Shown here: positions 1,775 to 59,047 of the stretch, one piece after another | Numbering within the stretch: position 1 is the stretch's first letter | Layout: each line of letters opens with the position of its first letter | Assembly: GCA_039679545.1 (NCBI GenBank) | Contig: JBDKUT010000163.1 | Coordinates: 17,997-81,996 of the forward strand | Direction of reading: 5' to 3' | Length of the DNA stretch: 64,000 nucleotides | Origin: Thermotogota bacterium | GTDB lineage: Bacteria; Bipolaricaulota; Bipolaricaulia; UBA7950; UBA9294 | Notes under the pieces: generated by a model | Seen by the model: only the letters and a program-made list of their open reading frames with translations | Database searches by the model: none | Told to the model about the DNA's origin: nothing | Program-made: the position numbers and the translations under genes

Positions 1775-1976
1775 GCGATCTCCTTTCGCACCGCCTGTGC
1801 GACTCCAATGCCGACATGATCCCTCCTTTTCGTCTCCGTGACGTCTCCGCAACGACGCGGACGACGTGAGCGGAAGCGAGACGGGGTGGGCGCCCAACGC
1901 CACGGGTCTCCCGATCTGCGGCTCGGAATCGCGTACCATGGAGGCAAACGGGAGAACGGGAGAGGAGAGTAGGGCC

Positions 1977-3809
1977 GTGGCGCTTCTGGCTGTGCGGGAT
2001 CTCGGGAAGACGTACGCGTCGCACACGCTGTTCGAGCGCCTCTCCCTGACGTTTCACGCCGGCGAGCGCGTCGGTCTCATCGGGCCGAACGGAGCGGGCA
2101 AGTCGACCCTGCTGCGGATCCTCGTCGGCCTCGAGACGCCCGACTTGGGAGTCGTCGAGCGCGCCCGAGACGCGCGCATCGCCTACCTGCCCCAAGTCGA
2201 CGCCTTCCCGGCCGGTGTCACCGCCGAGGACGCGCTCTACGCGGCGTCTCGCGAGGTCCCCGCCGAGGAGCACGAGCAGACGGTCCGCGCCAAGAAGATG
2301 CTCCGTCGCGTCGGCTTTGAGCGCGGCGACGTCCGCGCTGACTCCCTGTCTGGCGGATGGCGCAAGCGCCTCGCCATCGGATGCCGCCTCGTTCAAGAGC
2401 CGGACCTCCTCCTGATGGACGAGCCCACGAACCACCTTGACCTCGCAGGCATCGATTGGCTCGAGCGCTTCCTCGAGCGCGCAAACCTCGCGTACGTCGT
2501 CACGAGCCACGATCGCTACTTCCTCGAACGGGTCACGGACCGCATCGTGGAGATCAACCGCCGCTATCCGGACGGGTTCCTCAGCGTCTCCGGGCACTAC
2601 AGCGACTTCCTCGAGAAGCGAGAGGCGTTCCTGCACATGGAGGACGCCGAGCGCCAGGCGCTCGCCACCGAGGTTCGCCGCGAGATCGACTGGCTTCGCC
2701 GCGGACCGAGCGCGCGAGAAACGAAGTCCGCGGCTCGGATTGGCTCGGCAAAGGAGAAGATCAGCAAGCTCGCCGAGGTCGGCCGCCGGCAGCGAAGCGA
2801 CGGGCGAATCGAGATCGACTTCGCGGCCAGCGGTCGGCGCACGCACGACCTGGTCACGGCCAAGGGGATCTCGAAGGCGCTCGGCGGCCGAGACCTCTTC
2901 AGGAATCTCGACCTCCACCTCTGCCGCGGAGATCGACTTGGAATCGTAGGGAACAACGCAACCGGGAAGACGACGCTTCTCCGAACGCTCGCTCGTCTCT
3001 CGCCGCCCGACATCGGAACGGTGAGCCACGCGACGGACCTTCGCATCGCGCTCTTCGATCAGCAGCGCGACCAGCTCGACCCGAGCGAGCGCCTCCGCCG
3101 GGCTCTCTCGCCATCGGGCGACACCGTTTCCTACCTCGGCCGGAAGTCGCACATCGTCGCGTGGGCCAAGCGGTTCGGCTTCCGCGCCGATCAGCTCGAC
3201 ACACCCGTCGGCGAGCTGTCGGGAGGCGAGCAGGCGCGGGTCCTGATGGCGCTCATGATCCGCGAGCCGGCCGACGTTCTGATGCTCGACGAGCCCACGA
3301 ACGACCTCGACGTCTCGTCGGTCGAGGTCCTCGAGAGCGCGCTCCTCGAGTTTCCGGGCGCCGTCGTCCTGATCACCCACGACCGGTACATGCTCGATCG
3401 CGCCTGCACCGACCTCGTCGGGCTTCACGGAGACGGCCGCTGGGCCAACTACGGAAGCGTCGCTCAGTGGATGGAGCGGGAGACGGAGATCCGCGCCGAG
3501 CGGCAATCTGCAGGCGAAGCCGACGCGCGGAAGTCCGGCGCAAAGGACAGGCGGTCCGCGACGGACGTCGACCCTTCGCCGAGGCCCGGCCTCACCTACC
3601 TCGAGAAGAAGGAGTGGGAGACGATCGAGGAGCGGATCCTCGCCGCCGAGCAGGACGTCGAACGCCTCCGGGCGGATCTCGACGATCCCGCCCTGGCCTC
3701 CGACCACGAGAAGCTCCACGCGGCCTACGAGGTCCACCAGGCCGCACGTCGCGAGCTCGAGGCTTTGTTCGCACGATGGCAGGAGCTCGAGCGCAAGTTG
3801 CTCGGGTAG
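1977..3809 (+). CDS. ABC-F family ATPase (tandem ABC domains, no TMD; EttA/Uup-like translation factor type)
   Basis: Two Walker A ([18 protein letters not shown]) and two LSGG signature motifs; C-terminal coiled-coil-like region; GTG 1977 with GGAGAGGAGAG RBS (alternative ATG at 1938). Confidence 0.85.
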
Positions 3810-8275: not shown

Positions 8276-9685
8276 CTAACGGCCGCCCGTTCTTCTCTTG
8301 GGATGAACGCCAAGGCGCCCGTCCCGAGACGGGGCGGACGCAGTCGTCATCCGCCGGAGCTTGCGGACCTCAAGGACAAGCATGGGCATGACGATCAGAG
8401 CCGACACGAAGTCGGCGACCGGGAAGGCAATCCAGACGCCTTTTGTGGAGAAGTGCGACGAGAGGACAAGGACGGCAGGGATGACGAGAATGATGTCGCG
8501 CAGGAACGAAAGCGCGAACGCCCGCCCGGCCCGTCCCATCGCCTGATAAAAGCTGCCGACGATGGGCTGTAGCGCAAGAAGGGGAATCACTACGACGGTA
8601 ATCCGTAGTGCCACCGATCCCTCGGCAATCATCGCCGGATCCGAGCTGAACATGGAGAGGAACACGGTCGGCAGGAAGAGGAGCAGCGCCCAGGAGGCGA
8701 AAGCCAGTCCGATGGCGAGAACGAGGGCATGCTTGAGTGCTGAGATCACCCGCGGGTAGTTGCCCGCACCGTAGTTGTAGGCGTAGATCGGTTGGGAACC
8801 GTCTGCCACACCGAAGACCGGCATCCGGGCGAGGGTGACGATGCGGTTGATGACGCTATAGATCGCGAGCGCCACGCCGCCGCCGTACGCTCCGAGAGTG
8901 CGGTTGATAACGACCGCGGCCGCGCTCGAGGCGAAGATCCCGACAAACGAGGGCACTCCTACGCTCACGATCTCCCACGTCGTCCGCGCCTTGGGGACGA
9001 CGTTGCGCGGAGAGAAGCGAACCGACGTCTTCCTCTGCAGGACGCTGTAGACGTAGTAGGCCACGCCGATGCTCGAGGAAACCACCGTCGCCCAGGCGGC
9101 TCCCGCCGTTCCCATGTGGAGCACGAAGATGAAGATCGGCTCGAGGAAGATGTTGAGAATGCCGCCTACGATCATCGGGAGCGTGGCGCGCGACGCGTCC
9201 CCCTGCGCGCGGAGAACGGACATGAAGATCGATGGGAAGATGAAGGCGAACGAGCCCGTCAGGACCACGGTCGTGAACGAGTCCGCGTACGGGAGGACGT
9301 CCGGCGTCGCCCCAGCGAAGACCAGGAGCGGGCCTCGATAGAGTCGGCCGAGCACCGCCACGAGGATGCTGGCCACTGCTCCAAGCGTTACGGCGTTTCC
9401 GAAGGCCCGCTCTGCAAGCTGAAGGTCTCCCTTCCCCAGCGCGCGCGACAAGACGGAGGCGCATCCAGCGCCGATGAATTGCCCGATACCGATGACGACG
9501 AGGAAGATCGGGAACGCAACGCCGATCCCCGCCATGGCCAGGGTTCCCACCCCGCGTCCAACATAGATCGCATCGACAACGTTGTAGAACGCCAGGACGC
9601 CGAGTGAAACGATGGACGGGGTAGCCAGCCGCACAATCAGCTTCCGAATCGGGTCGATCCCGAGCGCCTTCGTCTTGTCCCGCAT
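8276..9685 (-). CDS. MATE family multidrug/oligosaccharidyl-lipid efflux transporter
   Basis: 12-TM profile, typical MATE N-terminus (LATPSIVSLGVLAFYNVVDAIYVGR), 469 aa. Confidence 0.9.
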   Translation of the reverse strand: MRDKTKALGIDPIRKLIVRLATPSIVSLGVLAFYNVVDAIYVGRGVGTLAMAGIGVAFPIFLVVIGIGQFIGAGCASVLSRALGKGDLQLAERAFGNAVTLGAVASILVAVLGRLYRGPLLVFAGATPDVLPYADSFTTVVLTGSFAFIFPSIFMSVLRAQGDASRATLPMIVGGILNIFLEPIFIFVLHMGTAGAAWATVVSSSIGVAYYVYSVLQRKTSVRFSPRNVVPKARTTWEIVSVGVPSFVGIFASSAAAVVINRTLGAYGGGVALAIYSVINRIVTLARMPVFGVADGSQPIYAYNYGAGNYPRVISALKHALVLAIGLAFASWALLLFLPTVFLSMFSSDPAMIAEGSVALRITVVVIPLLALQPIVGSFYQAMGRAGRAFALSFLRDIILVIPAVLVLSSHFSTKGVWIAFPVADFVSALIVMPMLVLEVRKLRRMTTASAPSRDGRLGVHPKRRTGGR

Positions 9686-9957
9686 CGGCTCGACTCCTTC
9701 TTCCTTGTGCCCCCCTCACCCGCCGGCGCCCGACGCTCTTCCGAGGCCACGTACCTTTCTCACACCGAAGTTAACCCACGTCGGCGCCCCTCGATCCCCG
9801 CTCCCATTGTCGCAGATCAGATCCTGCAACGCGAGCGCGCCCCCCCAAAAAAGCTCCTTTCTTCTCGTTAACACGAATCCCCTCGACAAGCGCCACCCGT
9901 CCTCACGGGCATGGTCCCCAGGCTTTCACGGAATCGACGGCGAAGCCCAATCCTCCG

Positions 9958-11895
9958 CTACGGCCCGAGGCCGATCCGTCGGAGAAGATCGCCGTACCGG
10001 GGATCGGAGCGGCACGAAGCGAGTTTCGGATCCGAGCTCATTTCCGTGAGTTCGTGGTCGTGCGCCGCGTAGGCGCGTTCAAGGAGAGCGAACCCTGCGT
10101 CGTTCCGACCGAGCGCGAAGTAGAAGAGGGCAAGGGCGTAGGGGGCCACGGGGTGGCGCTCGGTGTCCTCGAGAACCTGGCCGAGGCACTTCTCGACCGT
10201 GCCCTTCTCACCCGCAGCTTCGCGGAGTTGCGCCAGAGCGAGGGTGACGTGCGGCTCCGGGAAGCCCGCAAGTTCCTTCGCTTTCTCGAGGTCGGCTCGA
10301 GCAAGATCATGCCGGCCTTGGCTGAGATAGCATTCCCCCCGATACAGACGCAGGATCAGGTTGTCCGCCCCGAGGTTGAGAGCCATGTCGAATTCGGCAA
10401 TGGCCAACCCGAGAGTCCCGGCGCAGTAGTAAACCTGCCCCAACGCGCCGCGCTGCACGGCAGAGAGGGGGTCGAGAGCTTGAGCAGTCTGGAGCGCAGC
10501 GATCGCCTCGTCGAACCGGCACAGCGTGAGAAGGAGCATTCCGAGCCAGTGGTGCGCGCCAGCGTAGCTCGGTGACGACTCGATCGCCGTCCGAAGCTCG
10601 CGTTCGGCGCCGACCCAATCCCATTCCTCCATCAGGCACACAGCGAGGGCGGCGTGCGCCTCCGGCAGGCCTCCGTCAAGAGCGAGGGCCGCGAGCGCGC
10701 TCCGTTTCGCCTTGGCCTGGACATCTTCCGGAACTCGTGCCGTGTAGTTGGGCAGAATCGCGCGAGCCGCACCCAACGCCGCATGCGCCTCGGCGTACGC
10801 CGGGTTGAGCTCGACGGCGCGTTCGAAGCATCCGATGGCGGCTTCGATGTCCGCCGCGGTTCTCTTGGCGAGAAGGGCGCGCCCCTTCAAGTACGCCGCG
10901 TACGCCTCCGGATCAGCGTGCTCGGGCGGTTTCGCACCCCGAGCAGGCTTCGGCGCGAGCTGCACCTCCAGCGCTGACGCCACGCTCCGCGCGACCTCCG
11001 TCTGCACCGCAAACACATCGTCCAGCGTGCGGTCGTACGCCTCCGACCACAGGTGTCCCTCGCCGACCACGTCGATCAGTTGCAGCGTGATCCGCAGGCG
11101 ATTCCCCGCCTTGCGCACACTCCCTTCGAGAACTGCTCCCACCCCGAGTTCATTCCCGATCTCCGCCACCGCCTTCTTCGCCCCGCGGTACTTCATCGCC
11201 GATGTCAGCGCGATCACTTGCAGACCGCTCACCTTCGACAGCGTGAAGATCAACTCCTCCGTCAGCCCGTCGGCGAAATACTCGTCCCCCGCATCGGGGC
11301 TCATGCTCACGAGCGGCAGCACCGCCAGCCGAGACCGATCCGCCGTCCGCCCCACCGGCGCCTCGGTCTGCATCCACGGAAGAAGCATCCCGTAGACCTC
11401 GATCGGCACCTTCACGTTCTTCAGGTCCTTCTTGCCCAGGCTCGCCATCCGCACGTCGATCTTGTTCCACACCTGGTCGTAGACCTGGCGCGATAGGCAG
11501 ATTCCTCCCGGCTCGGCCAGCGGCTCGATCCGCGCCGTGATGTTCACCCCGTCGCCGAAGATGTCCCCGGCTCGGTGCACGACGTCTCCCAGGTGAACGC
11601 CAATCCGCACCTGGATCGCTCGATCGAGCGAGACCGCCGCGTTTCGCTCGTAGAGCGCCCGCTGGATTTCGACGGCGCATCGGACGGCCTGGAGCGCGCT
11701 CGGGAACTCGACGAGAAACCCGTCCCCCGTTCCCTTGACTTCGCGGCCGCTGTGTTCGGCGAACAGCGGCCGAAGGAGCGCCGCGTGCTCCGCGAGCAGG
11801 GCCAGCGTCAGAGCCTCATCCGTTTGCGTCAGTGCCGTGTAGCCGACGACGTCCGTCAGCATGATCGCGGCGAGTTGCCGGATGTCATTCTCCAT
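9958..11895 (-). CDS. Class III adenylate/guanylate cyclase fused to TolB-N-like region and TPR repeats
   Basis: CHD catalytic motifs (MLTDVVGYTAL, GTGDGFLVEF, RIGVHLGDVV, GDGVNITARI) followed by TPR-like helical repeats; ATG 11895 after GAGGG. Confidence 0.85.
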   Translation of the reverse strand: MENDIRQLAAIMLTDVVGYTALTQTDEALTLALLAEHAALLRPLFAEHSGREVKGTGDGFLVEFPSALQAVRCAVEIQRALYERNAAVSLDRAIQVRIGVHLGDVVHRAGDIFGDGVNITARIEPLAEPGGICLSRQVYDQVWNKIDVRMASLGKKDLKNVKVPIEVYGMLLPWMQTEAPVGRTADRSRLAVLPLVSMSPDAGDEYFADGLTEELIFTLSKVSGLQVIALTSAMKYRGAKKAVAEIGNELGVGAVLEGSVRKAGNRLRITLQLIDVVGEGHLWSEAYDRTLDDVFAVQTEVARSVASALEVQLAPKPARGAKPPEHADPEAYAAYLKGRALLAKRTAADIEAAIGCFERAVELNPAYAEAHAALGAARAILPNYTARVPEDVQAKAKRSALAALALDGGLPEAHAALAVCLMEEWDWVGAERELRTAIESSPSYAGAHHWLGMLLLTLCRFDEAIAALQTAQALDPLSAVQRGALGQVYYCAGTLGLAIAEFDMALNLGADNLILRLYRGECYLSQGRHDLARADLEKAKELAGFPEPHVTLALAQLREAAGEKGTVEKCLGQVLEDTERHPVAPYALALFYFALGRNDAGFALLERAYAAHDHELTEMSSDPKLASCRSDPRYGDLLRRIGLGP

Positions 11896-12177
11896 GGTGT
11901 CTTCGACCCTCACTGTCGATGGAGCAGTATGGAATGAGCCTCTGCGCGCGGCAAGTGACGTTGTCCCTTCGACCTCGCAAGCCGACCCAGGACGAGAGCA
12001 CGGCAAAGCGTTCCCGGGCTCGACGCAGGGCGTCCGCATCGACGCGTCCAAGAGGGGTCTCGGTCCGGCAGGTTCGCTCGGAGATCCGCAGCTATGCGGA
12101 GGCGAACCCCTCACGCGGTTTGAACGTCCACGTTCGCCGTAGCGTGTCGGCACCGATCCGATCAAGGTCGGCCGGGG

Positions 12178-13458
12178 TCACCGCGACCCCGAGGGGGCGA
12201 GCGCTTGCGCAACGGCGTCCGGCGCGTAGAGCCCGCGGGAGAAGAAACCGCCCACGAGGTTCGACAAAGCCTGTCTCCATCGCTCCTCCGCGAGGAGGAC
12301 GTCAACCGTTTCGTCGTCCGTTCGTGGCACCCCGCCCCCTGAAGCCTTCGGGGTGAGGCGGTCGCCAGCGCTATCGAGGTGGCTGTGACGAGAACCGGTG
12401 AGGAATCCGAGGGGGCAGGCCGGCCCGGTGTGATACCCGGGCAATCTCGTTTCCATTGAGTGCAAGCGCGAACTCTCTCCCGCCGTAGACGGAGGACGCG
12501 TGCTCGACACCCCGAGTGAGCGGTAGAGGTCCGTGGGCCGACGGACGATTCGGCGGACCGCGGAGGCATACGCCTCCGACTCGCCCCACGCCAAGGGGAC
12601 GCCGCCGAGATCATCCTTGGTGACGAGCCCCTTCTCGTACACCTCGGTGGACCAGGCGAGAATGCCCCCTCACTCAGCGCGTCGAGTCCCTGGTTTTCAA
12701 CCTCGTCGGCAAGGCGCAGGATCCCCTCGGGATCGGCGACGCCGAGCAGACGCCCGAGGGCATAGATCAACTCACAATCGTAGCCTAGCGTGGATGTCTT
12801 GTAGAAAGTACGGCTCTTGGGGATGAGACTCCGGAGCGCGGCGAAGTAGATGCAGGCCACCGGGCAGTTGGCTGCAGGCGAGTCGGCGCCCAAGGAAGCG
12901 TCTGCCATCGCCTCACCGGAGATCGCTTCGGCCCCCTCGAACTGCGCCGCTTTGAGATTCCGCGCGGGAGCGCCCCGGACTCGTTCAAGGGAAAGACGTT
13001 CATCGGGGTCCCGAGGTTGTGGTACTTCTTCATGGCGGGCGACGTCGCCGCGGCGCGGAAGAGGGCGTCGTACTCGCGCCGGCACGCCGCCGGATCGGCT
13101 ACCGAGAGCGTCCGATTCCCGGCAATCACGATCCCTTTACGCCGCTTGCTCCCGAAGACGGCGCCGAACGGGCCAGCATCGCGGCAGTTCCCGCATCCGA
13201 TGCACAGTTCGGGGTGAAGCCGAACCCCGCTGCCTTCGCGGGGCGTCAGAGCATCCGTGGGGCAAACCGCGCGCAGGGAGGCTCGGCGCAGGCACGGCAA
13301 ACCACAACGGCGAACCCCTTTCGCGTCCTGCCCGCTGATCGGACACCGATCCGCGACCCGGCCGTCCCTCCAACGCTCGCCCGCCGCGCACAAGCGAACA
13401 GGCACAACTGGCAACCGACACAGCGGTCGACATCGATAACGTACAAGCGCCTGGCCAT
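12178..13458 (-). pseudogene. Decayed 4Fe-4S dicluster ferredoxin + aldehyde:ferredoxin oxidoreductase (AOR family) remnants, frameshifted and internally deleted
   Basis: Minus-strand ORF fragments in three frames: ferredoxin CVGCQLCLFAC / CPTDAL...CIGCGNC; AOR-like segments (ENQGLDALS, YEKGLVTKDDLGGVPLAWGE, LPGYHTGPACPLGF); total length far short of a ~600-aa AOR. Confidence 0.6.
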
Positions 13459-13480
13459 GGCCTCCTTACCTCGAGCCACT

Positions 13481-15022
13481 CTAGAACGGCGGCGTGGAGG
13501 AAGCAACCGACCGCAGCCGAAGCATGTGCTGTGCCAGGCGATAGCTCACGCCCTTCGGGGTGACCGGGGCGATCTCCCACTCGAGCGTGACGAGCGCCTC
13601 GAGGAAGCGCCGGTCGTGGCTCACAAGGAGGAGCGCGCACTCCGTCTCACGCAGCGCCGATTCGAGGCACTCCACCGACGGCAGATCCATGTGATTGGTC
13701 GGCTCGTCCAGGATGATGAGGTGTGGTTCATCAACCATCCGGACAGCGAGCAAGAGCTTCCGCACCTCGCCGGGACTCGGAGCTCGGCTCTCCAGAACCC
13801 TCCGAGGGTCGGATCCGAGGCGGCTCACCCACTGCATCGCGACGCCGAGGTTTTTCCGGGGAAGGCGCCGTACGTCCTCGAGCAGGCCGGACGAGCTCTC
13901 AAGAGGAAGTTCCTGAGGGACGTAGAGCACTCGCTCGGGCGGAAGCGTCAGTCCCACGACAATGTGGCGGACAAGCGTGCTCTTTCCACTCCCGTTGGGT
14001 CCCGTGAGGGCTATCCGATCCCGGGGCTGAATATTGAGGTCGGGAAACTCCAAACGGCGAGGCGACCCCAGTTCGAGGCTTCCCGCGGCGACTCGCACGA
14101 CCGCGTTGCGGTCCGATGGACGGCTGCGGAGGCCGATCCCGAGATCGCGCACCGGGGTTGGCGAGAGGGCCAACTCGCGTTCCGCCGTCTGGCGGAGCCG
14201 ACCCTTCAGCTGGCGGAAGCCCTGTCCGGAACCGCGGTCGTGATCGCGTGCGGCCCTCGCCTTCTCCCGCGCGTCGTGATCTCGGGGCGCGACGCCACGC
14301 AAAGACTTCTCCTGCTCCGCCTTCCACGCGCGGGTTCGACGCGCCTTGACTTCGCGTTCGAGCCTCGCGCACTCCTTTCGGAGCTTCCTGCGAGCCTCGC
14401 GCGCTGCGCTCTCTTCGTCCCGGATGGCACGCATCGCCGCGGTGTACCCGCCGGCGCGAAGCTCGACACCTGGAGGAGACACGAAGAGCGAGTGAGCGCA
14501 GAGGCCGTCCAACAGGTCGCGGTCATGGCTGACCAGAAGTCCGATGCCGCGATACGTCCGCAGCGCCTGCAGAACTCTCTCCCGACCGGCCGCGTCAAGG
14601 TGGTTCGTCGGCTCGTCGGCGGCGAGCAAGTCCGGCTTGAGCCACAGGCTCGTCGCGATCTGCATGCGCTTGCGCTCGCCGTCGGAGAGGGTGTCCCAGC
14701 GGCGGAGCCAATCGTCGTCGATCCCGAGAATGCCGCGCAGTCGAAAGGCCTCCGCGTCGTTCGAAGCGAGGAAGCTCGCCGATTCCGGCATGGGCGCGTC
14801 GGTTCGCTGGGGACAGTACACGCGCGCCGCGGGCGCATCGATCCTCCCGCGGCGGGGAACGAGTTCTCCGCACGCAAGCCGCAGCAGGGTCGTCTTGCCG
14901 CACCCGTTCACACCGATGAAACCTGTCCATCCGGAGCCGACCCCGACCTCGATCCCCGAGAAGAGCGCGTCCGGCGAACCAACGTACGCGAAGGAAACGC
15001 TGTGGAAGATGAGCGACGACAC
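13481..15022 (-). CDS. ABC-F family ATPase (second paralog)
   Basis: Two NBDs (GVNGCGKTTLL / LSDGERKRM; GPNGSGKSTL / LSPGEVRKL, DEPTNHMD); GTG 15022 after AAGGAGG (short spacer). Confidence 0.85.
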   Translation of the reverse strand: MSSLIFHSVSFAYVGSPDALFSGIEVGVGSGWTGFIGVNGCGKTTLLRLACGELVPRRGRIDAPAARVYCPQRTDAPMPESASFLASNDAEAFRLRGILGIDDDWLRRWDTLSDGERKRMQIATSLWLKPDLLAADEPTNHLDAAGRERVLQALRTYRGIGLLVSHDRDLLDGLCAHSLFVSPPGVELRAGGYTAAMRAIRDEESAAREARRKLRKECARLEREVKARRTRAWKAEQEKSLRGVAPRDHDAREKARAARDHDRGSGQGFRQLKGRLRQTAERELALSPTPVRDLGIGLRSRPSDRNAVVRVAAGSLELGSPRRLEFPDLNIQPRDRIALTGPNGSGKSTLVRHIVVGLTLPPERVLYVPQELPLESSSGLLEDVRRLPRKNLGVAMQWVSRLGSDPRRVLESRAPSPGEVRKLLLAVRMVDEPHLIILDEPTNHMDLPSVECLESALRETECALLLVSHDRRFLEALVTLEWEIAPVTPKGVSYRLAQHMLRLRSVASSTPPF

Positions 15023-15246
15023 GTGCCCTCCTTCGTCTCTAGAGAGACGCACGCGGGCACGCCGTCGAACAAGAGGGAAAAGAGAGACAGGAAAGCAGCC
15101 CACGCGCGTCCATTGCGCGGCTGTACGTCAGCCGCGGATGTTCGCCGCGATCGAGCTACTCCGTCATCGGAATGCCTCCCTGAATCACTGCACTCCAGTA
15201 TAGCGGCCGCATCGGCCGTCGCTCAACGTCCAGGCGAATTCTCGAG

Positions 15247-16230
15247 CTACAGCTTCATTCCCATCGACTTGTTCGACGTGCGGGGGACAAAGCCGAGTGT
15301 CTCGGCTTCGCGAGCGACGGATGGCATCCACGCAGGTACGAAGATCTCAACCCGCAGCGTCGGGCTCTTCGCGAGAACCTCGGAGAGCGCCTTGCGCACA
15401 AGGTACGGAGCGAGGTCCGCGTGCGCTGGGTCGAGACGGGCTCGGATAGAGTTCGTCCCCTTTCCCTTCTTCGACACCGACCACCCGGCGCGAGCGACGA
15501 TGACGTGATCGTGGGTGCGCCGAACGATGACATCGCGATCCCGCGCGGTCTCGAAAAGCGGAGCCACGACGCGAATGGGCCAGGGTGTTCGGTAGCGGCC
15601 GGGGGTGATGGGCTCGAACTCCTGGAGGCCGGCAGGTACGACGCGCTTGTCCATCTCGTAGCGCGTACGCCAGTCGAACTCCGCGAGGGCCTCCTCGACG
15701 TAGCCCGCGGGCAACGGTGGCCGGTCGACGCCTCCGGCCGGCGTGAGCGAGTACCGGGTCGACCCGCCGTACTCGACAAACCCAAGCGAGCGGTAGAGGG
15801 ACTGTGCAGGTGTGTTCCCGTCGATCACGCCGAGTCGGACCCGGGAGCCGCCTCTTGCCCGCATCATGTCGAGCGTCGCGACGAGCAGCTGCCGCGCCAC
15901 GCCGCGCCCGCGCCACGCCGGGAGGACCCCGACAGTTCCGATGTACCACATGGACGTCGTTCCCTCGCGCTGCGCGATCGTCAGTCCGCAGATCGCTCCG
16001 CCGCCCTCCCACACGAAGCCCCGGATCAGGTCGCGCATCCCGGGAGAGACGAGCGCAAGCGCTCGGACGACCGGCCAGATACGGCGGATCCGCTGTATCC
16101 CATCGACAAGCTGTTCCTGTTCGTCCGACCGGACACCCCATTCCGGGTGCTCCGGGTACTGGAACGTCTTGACAAGCATGTCGGCGGCGGGGATCAAGTC
16201 CCGCGGCAGACGCAACGGACGTACGGTCAT
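15247..16230 (-). CDS. GNAT family N-acetyltransferase (two-lobed, ~327 aa)
   Basis: ATG 16230 after AAGGAGA; acetyl-CoA binding-like motif LPAWRGRGVARQLL; the 5' 630 bp of the listed ORF is antisense shadow of bfr. Confidence 0.7.
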   Translation of the reverse strand: MTVRPLRLPRDLIPAADMLVKTFQYPEHPEWGVRSDEQEQLVDGIQRIRRIWPVVRALALVSPGMRDLIRGFVWEGGGAICGLTIAQREGTTSMWYIGTVGVLPAWRGRGVARQLLVATLDMMRARGGSRVRLGVIDGNTPAQSLYRSLGFVEYGGSTRYSLTPAGGVDRPPLPAGYVEEALAEFDWRTRYEMDKRVVPAGLQEFEPITPGRYRTPWPIRVVAPLFETARDRDVIVRRTHDHVIVARAGWSVSKKGKGTNSIRARLDPAHADLAPYLVRKALSEVLAKSPTLRVEIFVPAWMPSVAREAETLGFVPRTSNKSMGMKL

Positions 16231-16470
16231 GATGTCTCCTTCGTGGCGAGGCCCTTCGCCATCTGACGTGGCCGCGACGCCGCACCTGCGGCGCGGGCGG
16301 GCCATCGTACGTCGTCGAAAAGCGACGTAGCGGTTCAGCGGTCGGCGGCCTTCGCGGCGAGCGCTGTGCCCCGTCTCGCAGGGTCTCTCGAGGGGAAGTC
16401 TCCGATTCGTCACGGATCCACGATCCTCGCTATAGTCGCGGGGGAACAACCCGAAGGAAAGGAGCCGCGG

Positions 16471-16938
16471 ATGAAGGGAAATGCCAAGGTCATTGCCAAA
16501 CTGAACGCTCGACTGGCCGAGGAATTGGCGGCCGTGAACCAGTACATCCTGCATTCGGAGATGTGCGCGAATTGGGGGTACGGGAAGCTCCACGAGGTGA
16601 TCGAGAAGCGGGCGATCGACGAGATGAAGCACGCCGAGATGCTCATCGCGCGCATCTTGTTCCTCGAGGGGAAGCCGACGGTGAGCAAGCTCGCCGACAT
16701 CCACGTCGGTGACAAGGTCGAGACGCAGTTCAAGAACGATCTCGCCGCCGAGCACGGCGCCGTCAAGGCGTACAACGACGACATCCGCTCCGCCGACGAG
16801 CTGGAAGACGGCGGAACGCGCGATCTCCTCGAGAAAATCCTGAACGACGAGGAGGACCACGTCGATTGGATTGAGGCCCAGATCGACCAGATCGCGCAGA
16901 TGGGGATTTCGAACTACCTCGCGGAACAGCGCGGCTGA
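16471..16938 (+). CDS. bfr: Bacterioferritin
   Basis: 155 aa; ferroxidase-centre residues and heme Met region (NAKVIAKLNARLAEELAAVNQYILHSEM...EMKHAEMLI); GAAAGGAG RBS. Confidence 0.9.
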   Translation: MKGNAKVIAKLNARLAEELAAVNQYILHSEMCANWGYGKLHEVIEKRAIDEMKHAEMLIARILFLEGKPTVSKLADIHVGDKVETQFKNDLAAEHGAVKAYNDDIRSADELEDGGTRDLLEKILNDEEDHVDWIEAQIDQIAQMGISNYLAEQRG

Positions 16939-16960
16939 CGCCGTACCGCTTGGCCGCGGC

Positions 16961-17524
16961 CTACCCCGCGGAGGCTCGCCTCATCCACTCGGCTCGTGAG
17001 ATCTCGTAGACGTAGTGCGGAACGGGCGTCGTGAAGTCCCGCATCAACGCGGGAAACCCAGCGACGCCCTCTCCGACGCGCTTCATCGCCGCCGACTCCT
17101 GCATCCGGATGGAGGCGATGTTCGCCACGTTCGGCGTACCTCGGACAATGACGCACGTTGTGCGCAAGAACGCCTGATCAACAAGCGCCGCCCACAACTC
17201 GCGGCCGTAGCCGCGGCCCCAGAAGGACGGATGAAGCTTGATGTCCGGCTCGCTGACGCCTGACGGACTCGGCTCCCCAAGCATGCACTGGCCAACCGGT
17301 TCTCCGTTGACGCACAGCTCCGCGATGAGGAGCACGTCATCTCCACGGCCGCGCTCGATGCGGCGCGGGACGTCTGTGGCCGCCGTCGGGATTCCGTGTG
17401 GGAAGCCTACGAACCGCATCACTCGAGGATCGCTCCAGAGCGACGCGATGAACGCGGCATCCTCAGGCACGGCGTCCCGGACAACGAGCCGCCGGGTCTC
17501 GAGCCGGACGCGCGTCTTCCTCAC
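16961..17524 (-). CDS. GNAT family N-acetyltransferase (RimJ/RimL-like)
   Basis: LETRRLVVRD start region typical of RimJ-like GNATs; GTG 17524 overlapping TGA of upstream gene (GTGA). Confidence 0.75.
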   Translation of the reverse strand: MRKTRVRLETRRLVVRDAVPEDAAFIASLWSDPRVMRFVGFPHGIPTAATDVPRRIERGRGDDVLLIAELCVNGEPVGQCMLGEPSPSGVSEPDIKLHPSFWGRGYGRELWAALVDQAFLRTTCVIVRGTPNVANIASIRMQESAAMKRVGEGVAGFPALMRDFTTPVPHYVYEISRAEWMRRASAG

Positions 17525-18351
17525 GTCTGGCACCGCGGGCAGACGTAACAGGACCCGCCGAGGTACTGCGTCTTCGCGATCGGAGTGCCGCAGGTCGGAC
17601 ACGGCCGCCCGGCCGCGCGGCCGTCGAGGAGGGGCACGTAGCGCCCGGGTTCGTCGAAGAGATCCCGTTCGGTGTCACGCCCGCCGAGGTTCGCCGCCTC
17701 TTGGAGCGTCTGGCGAAGCGCGCGGTACAACGCCGCCCTCTCCTCCGGCGAGAGGCTCGACACCTTGCGCTTGGGGCTCAAGCGCGCGCGGAACAGGACG
17801 TCCTGCAGGTACCCATTCCCGATTCCCGCGACGTTCGGCGAGTGCGTCAAGAAGGCCTTGATCGGTTTGTCCTGGCCCGCCGCGTGGCGATCTAGCCGCT
17901 CGAAGAACGCAGCCTCCGTGAACCCGGCGTCGAGCGGCGTAAACGCGAGGGTCCCCGCGTAGGGATGCCGGACGATCTCATCCTGTGTGAGCACGCCGAG
18001 GAAACCCCACATTTGGATCGCGAGCGAGAAGTGCGACCCGTCGTCGAACTCCGCGATCCAGTGTCGCTTGGCGGGAATCGGCGTCCCCGCGGGGTGGAAG
18101 AGAAGGCGCCCGCCGAACTCGCCGAACAGGAGCGTCCGCCCGTCATCCAGGCTACAGAAGATCCACCGCCCGCGGGAAGTTGCCTCCTCGATACGGCGGC
18201 CCGCCAGGGCGCGTTCGAAGGCGGGCGTGTCGGGCGAAAGGAAGAGGAACTTGGGACGTCCGGCTGGCACTTCCACACGCACGATCGTCCTCCCGACAAC
18301 CGTCCCCTCAAGTTGCCGCGCCAGATGGATGACCTCCGGGAGCTCGAACAT
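17521..18351 (-). CDS. Fpg/Nei family DNA glycosylase (formamidopyrimidine-DNA glycosylase-like) with Pro2 replaced by Phe
   Basis: N-terminal MFELPEV, H2TH region, C-terminal zinc finger CPTCG...CYVCPRC; GGAGG RBS 5 nt before ATG 18351. Confidence 0.85.
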   Translation of the reverse strand: MFELPEVIHLARQLEGTVVGRTIVRVEVPAGRPKFLFLSPDTPAFERALAGRRIEEATSRGRWIFCSLDDGRTLLFGEFGGRLLFHPAGTPIPAKRHWIAEFDDGSHFSLAIQMWGFLGVLTQDEIVRHPYAGTLAFTPLDAGFTEAAFFERLDRHAAGQDKPIKAFLTHSPNVAGIGNGYLQDVLFRARLSPKRKVSSLSPEERAALYRALRQTLQEAANLGGRDTERDLFDEPGRYVPLLDGRAAGRPCPTCGTPIAKTQYLGGSCYVCPRCQT

Positions 18352-18900: not shown

Positions 18901-20925
18901 ATGGCTCACGATTCCTGGCTTGACGAACTGAATCCCGCACAGCGCGCCGCCGTCACGCACGGCGCTGGCCCGCTGCTCGTCGTGGCGGGTGCCGGCACCG
19001 GCAAGACGAAGACCCTCGCCTATCGCGTCGCCTACCTGATCTCGCAAGGCGTCGACCCAGGGCGGATTCTCCTCCTCACGTTCACGCGCCGTGCGGCGCA
19101 GGAGATGCTTGAGCGCGCGTCAACCATCGTCGCTCGCGGTGCCTCGTCGGCAGGACGGGTCTGGGGAGGCACGTTCCACTCGATGGCCCACCGCCTGCTC
19201 CGGCTCTACGCTCCGTCTATCGGGATCGCCCGTGACTTCACCGTCCTCGATCAGGGCGATGCAGAGAACCTGATCCACTTCATCCGCCACGAGATGGGCC
19301 TCCACGAGAAGGAAAAGCGATTCCCTCGAAAGGGAACGTGTCTCGCCATTTACTCGCGCTGCGTGAACTCCGGTGACGACCTCAAGGCCGTCCTCGAGCG
19401 CGACTTCCCGTGGTGCGATGAATGGGAAGAGGAGCTCCGGACGCTGTTCAGGAAGTACGTCGTCCGCAAGCAGGATCGAAGCGTCCTCGATTATGACGAC
19501 CTCCTCCTGTACTGGATGGCTCTGCTCGACGTCCCGCAGCTGGCCGACGAGATCGGCGGACGGTTCGATCACGTTCTCGTGGACGAGTACCAGGACACGA
19601 ACATCGTGCAGGCGCGGATTCTCTTCGGGATGCGCAAGACGTGCCGCAACCTCATGGTCGTCGGCGATGACGCCCAGAGCATCTATGCGTTCCGCGGCGC
19701 CACGGTGCGCAACATGCTCGATTTCCCAGCGCAGTTCCCGGGAGCGACGATCGTCAAGCTTGAGCAGAACTACCGATCCGTCCTCCCGATCCTCGACACG
19801 GCGAATCGCCTGATCGCCGGGGCAAGCGAACGATTCGTCAAGGACCTCTGGTCGGAACGTCGGAGCACGACCCGACCGAAGCTCGTCACCTGCAAGGACG
19901 CCGCCGAGCAGGACGAGTACGTCGTCGACGCCGTGCTTCGGCACTACGAGGAAGGCATTCCCCTCCGCCGCCAGGCGATCCTCTTCCGCGCTGCCCACCT
20001 CTCCGACACACTCGAGATCGAGCTCGCGCGGCGGAACATCCCGTACCACAAGTACGGCGGGCTCCGTTTTCTCGAAGCCGCTCACGTGAAGGACCTACTC
20101 GCCTTTCTCCGCGTGCTTGAGAATCCTCGCGACGAGCTGGCGTGGTTCCGCATCCTTGAACTTCTGGAGGGAGTCGGTCCGACAACGGCGTCACACGTCG
20201 TCGAGCACGTCGGACAGAGCGGCAATGACCCGCGTGTTGTTCGCTCGTTCGGCGGCTCTGCCGCCGCGCGTGCCGGTCTCGCCGACCTCGCCGATGTCTT
20301 CGACGACCTCGTCCCGCTCGGACCGAAGAACCCCGAGGCGCAGATTGAGCGGATCCGACGCTTCTATGACCCCGTGTTCGAGAGAACGTATGAGAACCCG
20401 GTTGTTCGGGTCCGCGACCTGATCAGTCTTGAGCAGATTGCCGGGGGATACCGCTCACGACACCAGTTCCTCGCCGACGTTCAACTCGACCCGCCGACCT
20501 CAACGAGCGATCTCGCCGGAGCCCCCCACCTGGACGAGGATTGGCTCGTTTTGTCGACGATCCACTCGGCCAAGGGGTGCGAGTGGGACGTCGTCTACCT
20601 CATCCACGCCGCCGATGGATTCCTCCCGTCCGACCTCTCGACCGGCTCGCAGGATGAGATTGAGGAGGAGCGCCGCCTCGTCTACGTAGCGCTCACCCGA
20701 GCGAAGGATCACCTCTACATCACGTGGCCTCTGCGCTACTACCACAAGTGGTACGCGCTCGGTGACGACCACGGCTACGCCCAGCTCTGTCGCTTCTTCA
20801 CCCCAGACGTGCTCGACACGATCGACAACGTTGCACTCGCGGCACCCAAAGAGAGGGACGACGGAGGATCGTTCTACGACGTCGACGCGGACGTACGGCA
20901 GCGGATGCGTGACATGTGGGAGTAG
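18901..20925 (+). CDS. UvrD/PcrA/Rep family ATP-dependent DNA helicase
   Basis: Helicase motifs AGAGTGKT (Walker A), DEYQDT, VGDDAQSIY, C-terminal VALTRAK; 675 aa from ATG 18901. Confidence 0.9.
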   Translation: MAHDSWLDELNPAQRAAVTHGAGPLLVVAGAGTGKTKTLAYRVAYLISQGVDPGRILLLTFTRRAAQEMLERASTIVARGASSAGRVWGGTFHSMAHRLLRLYAPSIGIARDFTVLDQGDAENLIHFIRHEMGLHEKEKRFPRKGTCLAIYSRCVNSGDDLKAVLERDFPWCDEWEEELRTLFRKYVVRKQDRSVLDYDDLLLYWMALLDVPQLADEIGGRFDHVLVDEYQDTNIVQARILFGMRKTCRNLMVVGDDAQSIYAFRGATVRNMLDFPAQFPGATIVKLEQNYRSVLPILDTANRLIAGASERFVKDLWSERRSTTRPKLVTCKDAAEQDEYVVDAVLRHYEEGIPLRRQAILFRAAHLSDTLEIELARRNIPYHKYGGLRFLEAAHVKDLLAFLRVLENPRDELAWFRILELLEGVGPTTASHVVEHVGQSGNDPRVVRSFGGSAAARAGLADLADVFDDLVPLGPKNPEAQIERIRRFYDPVFERTYENPVVRVRDLISLEQIAGGYRSRHQFLADVQLDPPTSTSDLAGAPHLDEDWLVLSTIHSAKGCEWDVVYLIHAADGFLPSDLSTGSQDEIEEERRLVYVALTRAKDHLYITWPLRYYHKWYALGDDHGYAQLCRFFTPDVLDTIDNVALAAPKERDDGGSFYDVDADVRQRMRDMWE

Positions 20926-21016
20926 CCAGTTCTGTGGGCGACGCCGGCCCTCCGAGGAGTGAGAGCCTCGAGCGCGCCTGTTCCATTCCATTGGGTTGTA
21001 GCGACATGCGGCGGTA

Positions 21017-21105
21017 TTGACGAGGACCGGCCTCGGATTATAATGGCAACGATTTCGGAAAACGATACACCTTAGAACTGAACAGCGCGAAAACGTTTTC
21101 CGAAA
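21017..21105 (+). promoter_or_regulatory. Sigma70-type promoter TTGACG-16-TATAAT plus LacI-family operator (tttcggaaaacg ... palindrome GAAAACGTTTTC), copy 1
   Basis: -35 ~21017-21022, -10 ~21039-21044; 12-mer at 21053-21064 and its reverse complement at 21094-21105; element duplicated at 27073-27161. Confidence 0.6.
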
Positions 21106-21111
21106 CAGCCC

Positions 21112-21402
21112 ATGAACCGACGAGAGCCGAGGAAGCGAGCCACAGTCCGCGACGTCGCACTTCGCGCCAGTGTATCCATCGGCAACGTCTCCCGAGTGAT
21201 CAACTACGGTGTCTCCTCCCAAGTGCACGACACGACGCTCACGCGTCTGACCCAGGGTGCATATCAACTCACGCGATCCACAATTACAGGAGACACCCCG
21301 CAAGCACGAGCGATACGAAAACGCTGCCCGTGCAGCAAGGGAGGTGGTCGCAGAGCCAATGCGCTTGGTGCATTACGTGATGATAATGTCATATACATTT
21401 AA
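21112..21402 (+). pseudogene. LacI-family regulator remnant retaining only the HTH headpiece (first ~47 codons homologous to the intact paralog at 27168)
   Basis: MNRREPRKRATVRDVALRASVSIGNVSRVIN...SSQVHDTT aligns with the 27168 gene; remainder of ORF unrelated, ligand-binding domain absent. Confidence 0.55.
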
Positions 21403-21413
21403 AGGAGGTTGCG

Positions 21414-23000
21414 GTGGTCATTAGGCGTAAGCGCGTGTACGTCGCAGTTCTCGTAGGAGCGCTGTCCTTGTTGCTCTATGGGACGCCTCTGCTCGCTAGT
21501 ACTCCTGCAGACACCTTGGTCGTTGGAACCTTGCAGGAGATCTCTCTTGTGGACCCATCTATCGACTACAGCTTCACCGGCGGGCCCATCTTCCCAGCTG
21601 CGTATGAGCGCCTCGTCACCTTCAATAGCCACACCGGGAAGGTTGAGCCTGAGCTAGCCGTCAGTTGGGACATATCGGAGGACGGCACGGTCTACACCTT
21701 CAACGTGCGGCAGGGAGTGCAGTTTCACGATGGGTCAGCCCTCAACGCGGAATCTGTCAAGATCGCGTTTGACCGAACGATGAAGATCAACAGGGGACCG
21801 GCATGGATGCTGCGCGACTACGTCAAGGAAGTCGCTGTCGTCTCACCCTACGTCGTGCAGATTACTCTGAAGGCTCCGTTCGGCCCCTTCTTGAAGGTGC
21901 TGACCTCCTCTTGGGGTATGTCGATCATGAGCCCGAAAGCCTTGGCCGATCATGAGGAAGCGGGCGATCTCGCGCAAGGCTGGTTCCACGACAATATGTG
22001 CGGCACGGGACCGTACAAACTCGTCAGCTGGACGAAGGGCCAACAGATGGTGTTCGAGAAGTTCGACGCATATTGGCGCGGATGGGACGGGAACCATGTT
22101 GACCGAGTCATCGTGCGGGTGGTCCCTGACCCTACGACCTTGGTCATGATGCTTCGAAACGCTGATATAGACATCGCCTCGTACGGGCTGGTTTCCGAGT
22201 TAGGACCAAGCCTCGAGGGTGCCCCCCACTTGGTCACAGAGTCATACGAGACCTACACAACGGAAGCCGCTTTCATGAACACGACACGCGCCCCTCTTGA
22301 CGACGTCAGAGTGCGCCGAGCCATGTCGTACTCATTCCCCTACGAGGGAGCCTTGCAGGCCTATGGCGGCTACGCGGAGCGCTTGATTGGCCAATTGCCG
22401 CCCTCCTTGCCTGGTTTTGATCCCAACAGTCAGGTCTATCATCAAGACCTGGCCCTGGCCAAGAAACTGCTCACGGAAGCAGGAATCAATGAGGGTAGCC
22501 TGGCCTTGGAGTGCACGTGGGTTACTGAACAGCCAACCGGTGGAAGAATCGCCGAGCTCTGGCAACAGGATCTGGCAACGATCGGAGTGACCCTCAAGCT
22601 GACCGAGGTGAACGCTGCCGGCGGTTGGCTCCGAATATCCAGCCCGGAGACAACGGCTGACTTCACGATCACGAGGTGGGGAGTCGACTACCCTGACGCT
22701 CTGTCCAATCTGCTGCCTCTATACAAGAGCGATCTCACACCTGACAAAGGCGGGTACAACATCGGGCGATACAGCAATCCCTACGTGGATCAGCTCCTCA
22801 TCCAAGCCTCTCAGGAGGCGAATGTAGAAAAGGCAGTGCTCCTGGAGCAAGAAGTTCAACGCTACATCACGGACGATGCCCCGTCCATCTTCATCGTTGC
22901 AGTACCGCAGCTTGTCTGCTATCAGGACACCGTCAAGGGGTTTGTCTACGACCCGGGCTACTTCAGCTCCTTCAACCTCTATAACATGTACAAGGAGTAG
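21414..23000 (+). CDS. ABC transporter substrate-binding protein, family 5 (peptide/nickel/opine type)
   Basis: Signal peptide, SBP_bac_5 pattern; ~60% identical to paralog 28295..29854; AAAGGAGG RBS before GTG. Confidence 0.9.
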   Translation: MVIRRKRVYVAVLVGALSLLLYGTPLLASTPADTLVVGTLQEISLVDPSIDYSFTGGPIFPAAYERLVTFNSHTGKVEPELAVSWDISEDGTVYTFNVRQGVQFHDGSALNAESVKIAFDRTMKINRGPAWMLRDYVKEVAVVSPYVVQITLKAPFGPFLKVLTSSWGMSIMSPKALADHEEAGDLAQGWFHDNMCGTGPYKLVSWTKGQQMVFEKFDAYWRGWDGNHVDRVIVRVVPDPTTLVMMLRNADIDIASYGLVSELGPSLEGAPHLVTESYETYTTEAAFMNTTRAPLDDVRVRRAMSYSFPYEGALQAYGGYAERLIGQLPPSLPGFDPNSQVYHQDLALAKKLLTEAGINEGSLALECTWVTEQPTGGRIAELWQQDLATIGVTLKLTEVNAAGGWLRISSPETTADFTITRWGVDYPDALSNLLPLYKSDLTPDKGGYNIGRYSNPYVDQLLIQASQEANVEKAVLLEQEVQRYITDDAPSIFIVAVPQLVCYQDTVKGFVYDPGYFSSFNLYNMYKE

Positions 23001-23010
23001 TTTCTTCTTT

Positions 23011-23040
23011 CCCCCTGCGGTGCCTGCGCACCGCAGGGGG
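23011..23040 (+). other. Intercistronic perfect 13-bp stem-loop (ccccctgcggtgc-ctgc-gcaccgcaggggg) between SBP and permease genes
   Basis: Read directly from sequence; no T-tract downstream on + strand, so likely mRNA-stabilising/attenuating rather than a full terminator. Confidence 0.6.
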
Positions 23041-23053
23041 CCCATTCGACATC

Positions 23054-24067
23054 ATGGCCTACGTCATCTACGTCCTGAAGAGATGCGCTCTGCTGCTGCT
23101 CGTGATCCTTGGGGTCGTGACACTGACCTTTTTCGTATCTCACGTGCTGCCTGCGGATCCCGCCAGACTCAGCGGCGGGATCCGTGCTAGACCGGAACAG
23201 GTCGAAGCCCTTAGGGCAAAACTGAACCTCGACAAGCCCATACTCACGCAGTATTGGCTGTATCTTAGGGGACTGTCGAGAGGCGACTTGGGTACCTCGG
23301 TTCGCACGGAGCAACCAGTGAGTAGAGATCTTCTCACCTACTTTCCCGCTACTCTTGAGTTGACGTTCTCTGCGGTGATGCTTGCCATGTGCGTCGGTAT
23401 CCCGCTCGGAGTCCTTTCGGCCACCTCAAGAAGACGCTTCTTCGACTTCGGTGTCAGGACCTTCTCTGTTGGCGCTGTCTCTATACCCTCGTTCTGGCTT
23501 GGCCTGATGCTTCAACTGGTGTTCTACATGAACCTCAACCTGCTGCCTTGCCAAGGACGCCTCAGCCCCTTTGTCGCCCCTCCCAGCCACACTACCGGCC
23601 TGTACGTTCTAGATAGTCTCTTGGCTTGGAACGGTGCAGCCCTGGTCAACTCTCTGCAGCACCTCGTTCTGCCCACGCTGGCCTTAGGTGCTGGATCACT
23701 TGCAGTCATGACACGAATGACGCGGTCCAGCGTACTTGAGGTTCTTCGTACTGACTATGTTCAGACAGCGTGGGCGAAGGGGCTCTCGAAACAGGCCGTT
23801 CTCCTCAAGCATGTGCTTCGGAACGCTCTCCTGGCAATATCCACCGTGATAGGCCTTCAAATCGGCGCTCTTCTTGCAGGATCTATCCCCATCGAAGTCG
23901 TGTTCTCCTGGCCTGGTGTTGGCTCCTACGCTGCGAAAGCCATCACGTTTGTGGATTTCAACGCCATTCTCGGGGTCACCATCATCAGCGCGGTGGCATA
24001 TGCAGTGCTGAATCTCATGATCGATCTGCTGTACTTGTCAATTGACCCGCGTATTAGGTATGTCTAG
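23054..24067 (+). CDS. ABC transporter permease (DppB/OppB-like)
   Basis: 6-TM BPD_transp_1 pattern; paralog of 29924..30928. Confidence 0.9.
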   Translation: MAYVIYVLKRCALLLLVILGVVTLTFFVSHVLPADPARLSGGIRARPEQVEALRAKLNLDKPILTQYWLYLRGLSRGDLGTSVRTEQPVSRDLLTYFPATLELTFSAVMLAMCVGIPLGVLSATSRRRFFDFGVRTFSVGAVSIPSFWLGLMLQLVFYMNLNLLPCQGRLSPFVAPPSHTTGLYVLDSLLAWNGAALVNSLQHLVLPTLALGAGSLAVMTRMTRSSVLEVLRTDYVQTAWAKGLSKQAVLLKHVLRNALLAISTVIGLQIGALLAGSIPIEVVFSWPGVGSYAAKAITFVDFNAILGVTIISAVAYAVLNLMIDLLYLSIDPRIRYV

Positions 24068-24457
24068 CGCGCCTGACTCCATGCGAAAAACCGGCAGCCA
24101 ACCAGCCAAACATAGGCCAGCGGTTCTCGGTCGCCTAGGCCTCCGCCCTCTATTGTTGTGTTTTCTGCAACGGGGTTGCGTGGGCCTAGAGGGATCGATG
24201 TGGCTGATCCTCGACTATGACTGGCTCCGACGCTGGGCCGTGGCGTTCGGGTGCGCGAAGCGCCTCATGCGGACTGGGACACAGCGAGTGCTGCCCGGCT
24301 GCGAATCCGACATGTCATGGCGCATCCGGGCGGCGCCTGACCCTGCACGCCGCATCGCCGATAGCCAACCGAGAAGCCCAGTCCCCGCAACGGTCACGCC
24401 GCCACAATGGAGGTCCGCCGAGTGATCAGGAAGAGCTGCTACCTAGCCCGCAAGCTG

Positions 24458-25294: not shown

Positions 25295-25306
25295 GAATGG
25301 AGGACC

Positions 25307-26359: not shown

Positions 26360-26374
26360 GAAGAGCAGTACGGC

Positions 26375-29854: not shown

Positions 29855-29923
29855 GATTCGGCTCTCAGATGGGGGAGTTCCTCCGATGAGGAGAGGGCTC
29901 CCCCCTTGCTGGATCGGCAGGTC

Positions 29924-30928: not shown

Positions 30929-30940
30929 GAGAACGGGGAC

Positions 30941-58957: not shown

Positions 58958-59047
58958 GGCTCCGGATGGTACGACAACCCCGGAACTCCGGGTAGCCTCG
59001 CTTCCTCACGCACCCCCCCTGTGCTAGCATGCGGAGGTGACAGGGAG

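Follow-up and report, generated by a model that had tools for sequence, protein, structure and literature searches.

Decay of an iron-sulfur subunit and aldehyde:ferredoxin oxidoreductase gene pair in a Bipolaricaulota contig

The window analysed here is a 64,000-nucleotide stretch of contig JBDKUT010000163.1 (assembly GCA_039679545.1), which belongs to a metagenome-assembled genome (MAG) named 'Thermotogota bacterium' at NCBI. On the minus strand of the window, positions 13458..11987 are almost certainly a pseudogene without function, left over from an operon of two genes that encoded an iron-sulfur subunit (a ferredoxin) and an aldehyde:ferredoxin oxidoreductase (AOR). We annotated this region as a pseudogene on the basis of clear homology, an orthologous position, real disabling lesions and relaxed selection. 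As pseudogenes go it is ordinary, derived from a known enzyme family and not novel in kind; it is neither an artefact nor functional, and no indication of function was found for it. The remnant is 1,472 bp long and the intact operon 2,170 bp. An earlier note on this DNA had described a decayed, inactivated ferredoxin and AOR pair at this place, and the Pfam match and the second assembly described below bear it out. Its statement that the pair is shortened also held, but not its figures of ~1.3 kb against an expected ~2.3 kb.

The motifs quoted in that note, CVGCQLCLFAC, CPTDAL...CIGCGNC, ENQGLDALS, YEKGLVTKDDLGGVPLAWGESEAYA and LPGYHTGPACPLGF, were all found on direct reading of the sequence, on the minus strand and spread over three frames as it had said. 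A hand-stitched translation of 462 amino acids matched Pfam AFOR_C with 142 bits (E=3.8e-41, profile positions 9-328 of 385) and also several 4Fe-4S families, with Fer4_2 and Fer4 in the ferredoxin part; two lone single-frame fragments reached E=1.1e-11 and 2.9e-08. No Pfam match to the AFOR_N domain was obtained in the stitched translation, while nearly all of the database matches listed carry this domain. The protein database search of the stitched translation covered 5.8 billion proteins and returned 2,098 matches. The top matches were AFOR_N plus AFOR_C proteins of 585-586 amino acids from Candidatus Bipolaricaulis/Bipolaricaulota MAGs, with 73-74% identity and E values down to 8e-167. A tblastn comparison with AOR proteins, which the earlier note had proposed as a check, gave matches over the whole window only at 13458..11990, in frames -1, -2 and -3; the AOR similarity was significant and far above what chance would give, and no second AOR-like sequence was detected in the 64 kb.

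The whole remnant consists of 12 in-frame segments over three frames, separated by a deletion junction at which the frame is kept and by ten small indels. The ferredoxin remnant (WorS/AorA-like polyferredoxin) corresponds in the alignment to ortholog codons 1-64 at 13269..13458 (Fer4_2/Fer4) and, shifted by one frame, to codons 64-101 at 13157..13268 (Fer4, 28.7 bits). The AOR remnant at 11987..13156, delimited by the AFOR_C match, tblastn and alignment, corresponds to ortholog codons 195-586 and keeps domains 2 and 3, preceded by ~17 residues from the end of the N-terminal domain. It is made of ten frame segments plus a TAG at codon 551, not of one frame of about 580-620 codons. The longest open reading frame (ORF) across the region has 307 amino acids and is mostly out of the ancestral frame. 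Plus-strand ORFs over the region (e.g. 13019..15508, 829 amino acids) failed the GC3/GC2 coding filter and were rejected as antisense shadows typical of 66% GC DNA. No RNA family was found in the window with Rfam, and a promoter and terminator scan of 11600-13700 gave matches at chance level only.

An intact form of the operon was found in Ca. Bipolaricaulis sp. STA_74 (GCA_028713635.1, locus L001, whose AOR is P0002). The gene order there is ABC-F ATPase, a 141-amino-acid Fer4 protein, a 585-amino-acid AOR and a Guanylate_cyc/TPR protein, and the AOR gene overlaps the ferredoxin gene by 14 nt. On the minus strand of the window, the neighbours, their order and their spacing are all as in L001, so the remnant lies at the orthologous position. 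Upstream, the intact ABC-F ATPase gene (13481..15025, minus strand, about 514 amino acids) shows 85% amino acid identity to L001 with no gaps or stops, and ends 22 nt before the ferredoxin start in the window as in L001. The ferredoxin ATG occupies 13458..13456, with its A at position 13458, and a Shine-Dalgarno-like AAGGAGG (13461..13467, minus strand) is retained 2 nt upstream of it, an arrangement shared with L001. Downstream, position 11896 adjoins the start (11895) of an intact adenylate/guanylate cyclase-TPR gene (9958..11895, minus strand, 645 amino acids, MEN6370316.1), which aligns to L001; the neighbour of this gene is a MATE transporter (8276..9685, minus strand). In the more distant pair L002/L005 the ferredoxin and AOR genes are followed directly by MatE. 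A peptide scan of genome contigs returned 80 intact relatives, and the diagnostic peptides are all mutated in the window remnant. The operon context varies among relatives, which suggests an accessory gene.

The intact small subunit has 16 Cys residues in four motifs, and the intact 585-amino-acid large subunit is composed of AFOR_N and AFOR_C. From these features and the subunit matches given below, the ancestral system is predicted to be a heterodimeric WorLS-type enzyme in the sense of PMC12318220. There is no NCBIfam equivalog for it, and no AorC (flavin adenine dinucleotide, FAD) or BfuABC partner genes were found beside the intact orthologs in the L001 and L002/L005 neighbourhoods.

The largest lesion is a deletion of 691 bp. 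DNA alignment against the intact operons indicates that it removed ferredoxin codons 102-141 and AOR codons 1-194, that is, ferredoxin motif 4 and essentially the entire AFOR_N (tungstopterin-binding) domain. The loss of the AOR N-terminus had been noticed before and stands, but the earlier estimate of ~150 residues was too low for AOR residues 1-194, and ferredoxin residues 102-141 are gone as well. Arithmetic on L001 coordinates places ferredoxin codon 101 in frame with AOR codon 195. A five-sequence MAFFT alignment renders the deletion as 693-8+6, while a three-sequence alignment together with junction analysis gives a clean 691-bp gap. L002 and L005 have two copies of the 14-mer TCGGCGCCGTCTTC, of which one encodes PFGAVF in the ferredoxin gene and the other LGAVFGSK in aor; the repeat shared between the two genes is 8 nt long in L001, and L004 is without a shared string of at least 6 nt. 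The window holds exactly one copy of TCGGCGCCGTCTTC, at 13154..13167 on the minus strand, with ferredoxin sequence to the left of it and aor sequence to the right (...CCCGTTCGGCGCCGTCTTCGGGAGCAAG...). Such an arrangement is what a deletion between short direct repeats leaves behind. Exact and degenerate scans of JGI metagenome contigs did not find the deletion junction.

The small lesions were catalogued by DNA alignment to L001 and L002 and to four intact operons, followed by frame mapping. None of the lesion sites varies among the four intact operons, which assigns the changes to the window lineage. The ten small indels comprise seven deletions and three 1-bp insertions, all given here on the minus strand. 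One 1-bp deletion (~13269/13268) lies within Cys motif 2 of the ferredoxin (CRACAEPPCA|). The AOR remnant carries 1-bp deletions at ~12965, ~12904, ~12830, ~12667 and ~12197, a 4-bp deletion at ~12523, and 1-bp insertions at ~12869, ~12807 and ~12444. The in-frame TAG at ortholog codon 551 (12092..12094) replaces CGG (arginine) of L001 and GCG of L002, and the stop codon, TGA in the orthologs, has become TGG (11987..11989). In total, eight deletions removed 701 bp and three insertions added 3 bp.

Functional residues were lost in both genes. Of the four ferredoxin motifs only the first is intact: a frameshift runs through motif 2, motif 3 (CIGCGNCRDAGP) has lost its fourth Cys by a TGC to GGC (Gly) change at 13174..13172, and motif 4 is deleted. 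The roles of the AOR residues, including Tyr312, were taken from PMC12096430 and the positions from an alignment with Pyrococcus furiosus AOR (1aor). The codons for cluster ligands Cys288, Cys291 and Cys295 (P. furiosus numbering) are present but split by the +1 insertion at ~12869 (LACS | CPVAC). The codon for the fourth [4Fe-4S] ligand, Cys494, is GGT (Gly) at 12247..12249 (499 C>G; LVVCFF to LVGGFF). Codons for Thr243, Glu313, Tyr427 and His448 are recognisable (LGTPM, DCE, PGYH and SRHSH) but lie in different frames, and the equivalent of Tyr312, beside the catalytic Glu313, is TGT (Cys) at 12774..12776 (322 Y>C). Overall, the intact orthologs share 301 invariant columns; the remnant deviates at 43 of these, the Cys494 and Tyr312 equivalents among them.

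A second assembly of the same locus (L083; GCA_040960625.1, JBFOMW010009516.1) was reached through a close relative of the cyclase protein. It aligns to window positions 8299..17743 with 98.6% identity and 118 substitutions over 9.4 kb, and it has the 691-bp deletion, the TAG and each of the ten small indels in common with the window. Every lesion is common to this independent assembly, and the lesions are therefore not sequencing errors. The two assemblies differ by four indels (~15155 and 9851-9877), none of which falls in the remnant. We put a probability close to nil on an intact gene pair in the organism that only looks frameshifted through sequencing or assembly errors in the MAG. Several of the 1-bp indels do lie in or next to short homopolymers (TTT at ~12807, GGGGG at ~12667), where errors also tend to fall. 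However, L083 comes from another sample and its lesions are identical despite the 118 substitutions, and all four indels that separate the assemblies are intergenic. Moreover, no frameshift or stop appears when the ABC-F and cyclase genes on either side are aligned to L001, and some 50 further ORFs, with up to 1,000 amino acids, are also unbroken. Read errors do not typically produce lesions such as the 691-bp and 4-bp deletions, the nonsense substitution and the Cys-to-Gly changes.

The comparison of the window with L083 was also used to examine selection. The remnant differs at 44 of 1,563 sites (2.82%), close to the intergenic stretch 9686-9957 (2.99%), whereas divergence elsewhere is 0.65% in the MATE gene, 0.52% in the cyclase gene and 0.40% in 15026-17743 (Fisher p=5e-8). 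The differences in the remnant are spread over ancestral codon positions as 13/8/13, against 2/0/8 in the cyclase gene and 0/0/9 in the MATE gene. The ratio of nonsynonymous to synonymous divergence (dN/dS) is 0.50 between window and L083 and 0.12-0.13 among intact orthologs of different species. In a Tajima relative-rate test with L005 as outgroup, the window had 48 unique amino acid changes and L001 had 15 (p=4e-5); the window had 50 against 18 in L004, and the control comparison of L001 with L004 gave 11 and 12. The threefold excess of the window lineage over L001 falls at codon positions 1 and 2, not at position 3. Because of the intergenic-rate divergence, the even spread over codon positions and the 48 to 15 relative-rate result, the remnant can be regarded as being under relaxed selection and as drifting neutrally.

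Some observations weigh against this interpretation. The inter-strain dN/dS is 0.5 rather than 1, though the value comes from 34 differences only, and dS to other species is near saturation (0.6-1.05). The upstream ABC-F gene (13481-15025) is also diverged, at 2.33% between window and L083, which is 4-5 times the value of other genes (0.40-0.65%). Local recombination could add to the raised divergence of the remnant. The ABC-F gene is intact and its differences are biased to the third position (7/7/22, with 14 of 36 at positions 1-2); local recombination, diversifying selection or relaxed constraint could account for its raised divergence.

Three-point hand arithmetic on pairwise distances gave a dN of ~0.094 and a dS of ~0.48 for the window branch and ~0.028 and 0.385 for the L001 branch. 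With a functional omega of 0.07-0.13, these values suggest about 0.04-0.06 neutral substitutions per site since inactivation, several times the ~0.014 per lineage accumulated since the split of window and L083. The neutral phase would thus occupy about 10% of the branch that leads back to the nearest species whose copy is intact, an estimate that is rough because dS is near saturation. All lesions are common to the window and L083, so the decay predates the split of these strains, which are now 1.4% diverged. The claim of a recent inactivation consequently holds relative to species divergence only and not on the time scale of the strains. With ten small indels for about 70-80 neutral substitutions and a loss of 701 bp against a gain of 3 bp, the remnant conforms to the deletional bias that is usual in bacterial pseudogenes and that Mira, Ochman and Moran reportedly described in 2001.

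We propose the following history for the locus. The ancestral operon would have encoded both subunits of a heterodimeric AOR of the tungsten type: a catalytic one of 585 amino acids and a WorS/AorA-like small one of 141 amino acids that carried four [4Fe-4S] motifs. In an ancestor of this Bipolaricaulis-like lineage, a deletion between direct repeats TCGGCGCCGTCTTC, which encode GAVF in both genes, would have taken out the 691 bp, presumably by replication slippage or microhomology-mediated recombination. Neutral drift would account for the seven small deletions, the three 1-bp insertions, the nonsense codon, the stop loss and the loss of Cys ligands of Fe-S clusters, and these and the large deletion may have arisen in any order. 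The remnant almost certainly makes no enzyme and persists as a slowly eroding spacer between two intact co-directional genes.

A different reading of the same junction is that it created a functional in-frame fusion of the ferredoxin with the C-terminal part of AOR, or that the fragments are expressed as small proteins, possibly by programmed frameshifting. The deletion itself is in frame, from ferredoxin codon 101 to AOR codon 195, the Shine-Dalgarno sequence and the ATG are retained in the window, and a 70-amino-acid ORF with seven Cys survives. Nevertheless, we consider a functional product exceedingly improbable. The fusion is interrupted by ten more frame-breaking indels and the TAG, the tungstopterin-binding N-terminal domain is gone, as is one Cys ligand of the cluster. 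Substitutions in the remnant accumulate as fast as in intergenic DNA and show no codon-position bias, and even the N-terminal 70-amino-acid ORF has 5 inter-strain differences in its 213 bp, one of which turns the former start codon from ATG in the window to GTG in L083. Such a fusion architecture occurs in no database protein; the matches listed are AFOR_N plus AFOR_C proteins, save one AFOR_C-only entry of 394 amino acids on a 1.3-kb contig.

The earlier note had further taken the AOR loss as a hint of a shift away from an anaerobic, tungsten-dependent lifestyle. The sole AOR-like sequence of the window is indeed dead, and no genes for molybdenum or tungsten cofactor biosynthesis (moa/moe/mob) or tungstate transport (tupABC) were recognised within the 64 kb. 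However, this window is a small part of the genome, and the contig alone is 90.5 kb long. The closest relatives are Ca. Bipolaricaulis, and the closed genome of Ca. Bipolaricaulis anaerobius was reconstructed as that of an anaerobic fermenter in a paper that nowhere mentions an aldehyde oxidoreductase (PMC6092417). WOR/AOR enzymes are not exclusive to anaerobes either, as at least one obligate aerobe makes a WOR (PMC9424855). The window also encodes an AmmeMemoRadiSam radical-SAM enzyme, an EFR1 ferredoxin and a nitroreductase, which is consistent with an anaerobe but is not proof of one. AOR/WOR enzymes are accessory, often with paralogs, and the variable operon context in relatives points the same way. 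We therefore regard the proposed shift as unsupported and very unlikely: a pseudogene by itself shows no lifestyle change and says nothing firm on lifestyle. There is a small chance that the remnant was the last AOR/WOR gene of the genome and that its loss marks the abandonment of tungsten-dependent aldehyde/carboxylate redox chemistry in the lineage. The loss could also belong to a recurrent loss of an accessory operon across Bipolaricaulia.

Frame disruptions also occur at the corresponding locus of a more distant relative (L084:996-3137; ENA ERZ25039459 contig_35535), which has 69% nucleotide identity to L001 and in which ferredoxin and AOR are called as one 713-amino-acid protein. The fused call results from several ±1 indels and from insertions of 18 and 10 bp, seen in comparison with three intact operons. 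This locus may be a second, independently decaying copy or may reflect long-read assembly errors.

For practical use, the region should be annotated as a pseudogene and should not count toward the metabolic potential of the MAG. It also provides a clean, well-polarised case of repeat-mediated deletion and neutral erosion in an uncultured high-GC lineage, and one data point on the mutational spectrum and deletional bias in Bipolaricaulota, with 7 small deletions, 3 insertions and about 0.05 substitutions per site.

Several other features of the window were recorded. The nearest relatives of its proteins and of the locus are Ca. Bipolaricaulis/Bipolaricaulota, with which several 'uncultured Thermotogae' MAGs also group; the Thermotogota name is probably misleading. 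Exact matches to eight window proteins lie on the 90,501-bp contig of the MAG (proteins MEN6370315-MEN6370364, locus tag ABFD77_), and the other members of their protein clusters come almost entirely from Ca. Bipolaricaulis or Bipolaricaulota. The window has a GC content of 64-67% and long uninterrupted ORFs throughout. A stretch at ~20000-26400 has a GC content of 0.57-0.60, against about 0.65 elsewhere, and contains an Opp/Dpp-type ABC transporter (SBP_bac_5 at 21414-23000, permeases at 23054-24067 and 24407-25294), which may have been horizontally acquired. A second Opp/Dpp-type set with higher GC content is located at 28295-31792. Three ABC-F family ATPases are encoded in the 64 kb, at 1866-3809 (+), 13481-15025 (−) and 57029-58957 (−). 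The ORF at 58112-60064 (+) contains the radical SAM enzyme of the AmmeMemoRadiSam system (TIGR04337, 320 bits, ORF residues 321-649), which is not MoaA, and that at 53133-54725 (+) contains the EFR1-family ferredoxin (NF038196, 210 bits, ORF residues 271-513). The listed ORFs are much longer than the matched parts, so the true starts of these two genes lie downstream. A 336-amino-acid WD40 beta-propeller protein is encoded at 147-1157 (+).

Among solved structures, the best match of the intact large subunit is the archetype of the family, P. furiosus AOR (PDB 1aor; E=6e-70, residues 13-567), followed by Haloferax WOR83 and then by Acetomicrobium mobile WorL and Aromatoleum AorB. The P. furiosus enzyme forms a homodimer and has no polyferredoxin subunit, unlike the product expected of the Bipolaricaulis operon. 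Compared with this enzyme, the remnant keeps recognisable codons for Thr243, Glu313, Tyr427 and His448 and three of the four cluster Cys, but these lie in different frames, with Gly for Cys494 and Cys for Tyr312. In the Bipolaricaulis/Anaerolineae clade of AORs, SSLVVC stands in place of the second pterin motif DSAGLC of P. furiosus, with Ser replacing Asp489 (P0001 ~494-499; window 12264-12247). Going by this substitution, the clade may differ from canonical AORs in cofactor binding.

The closest known heterodimeric systems are WorSL of A. mobile (PDB 9mqx D/E), AorAB of Aromatoleum aromaticum (PDB 8c0z A/C) and WOR5 of P. furiosus (6x6u A/B). The intact large subunit matches 9mqx_D with E=6e-59 and 8c0z_A (AorB) with E=2e-57. 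The intact 141-amino-acid partner can be aligned over nearly its full length with WorS (9mqx_E, E=7e-13) and AorA (8c0z_C, 3e-11), and also matches the small subunit of WOR5 (6x6u_B). The intact Bipolaricaulis operon has the same two parts as these systems, and its small-subunit gene lies directly upstream of the large-subunit gene and overlaps it. In contrast to those systems, the intact Bipolaricaulis orthologs have no adjoining AorC (FAD) or BfuABC genes, and their small subunit is without a long C-terminal extension. The system of the window is dead, with one complete motif of four in the small subunit and no N-terminal domain in the large one. Lying between co-directional genes, the remnant may still be transcribed by read-through. 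As a pseudogene it resembles other bacterial pseudogenes formed by deletion between repeats, with the same junction at an 8-14 bp repeat, the same excess of deletions and the same intergenic rate of substitution, and nothing about the remnant is unusual in this respect.

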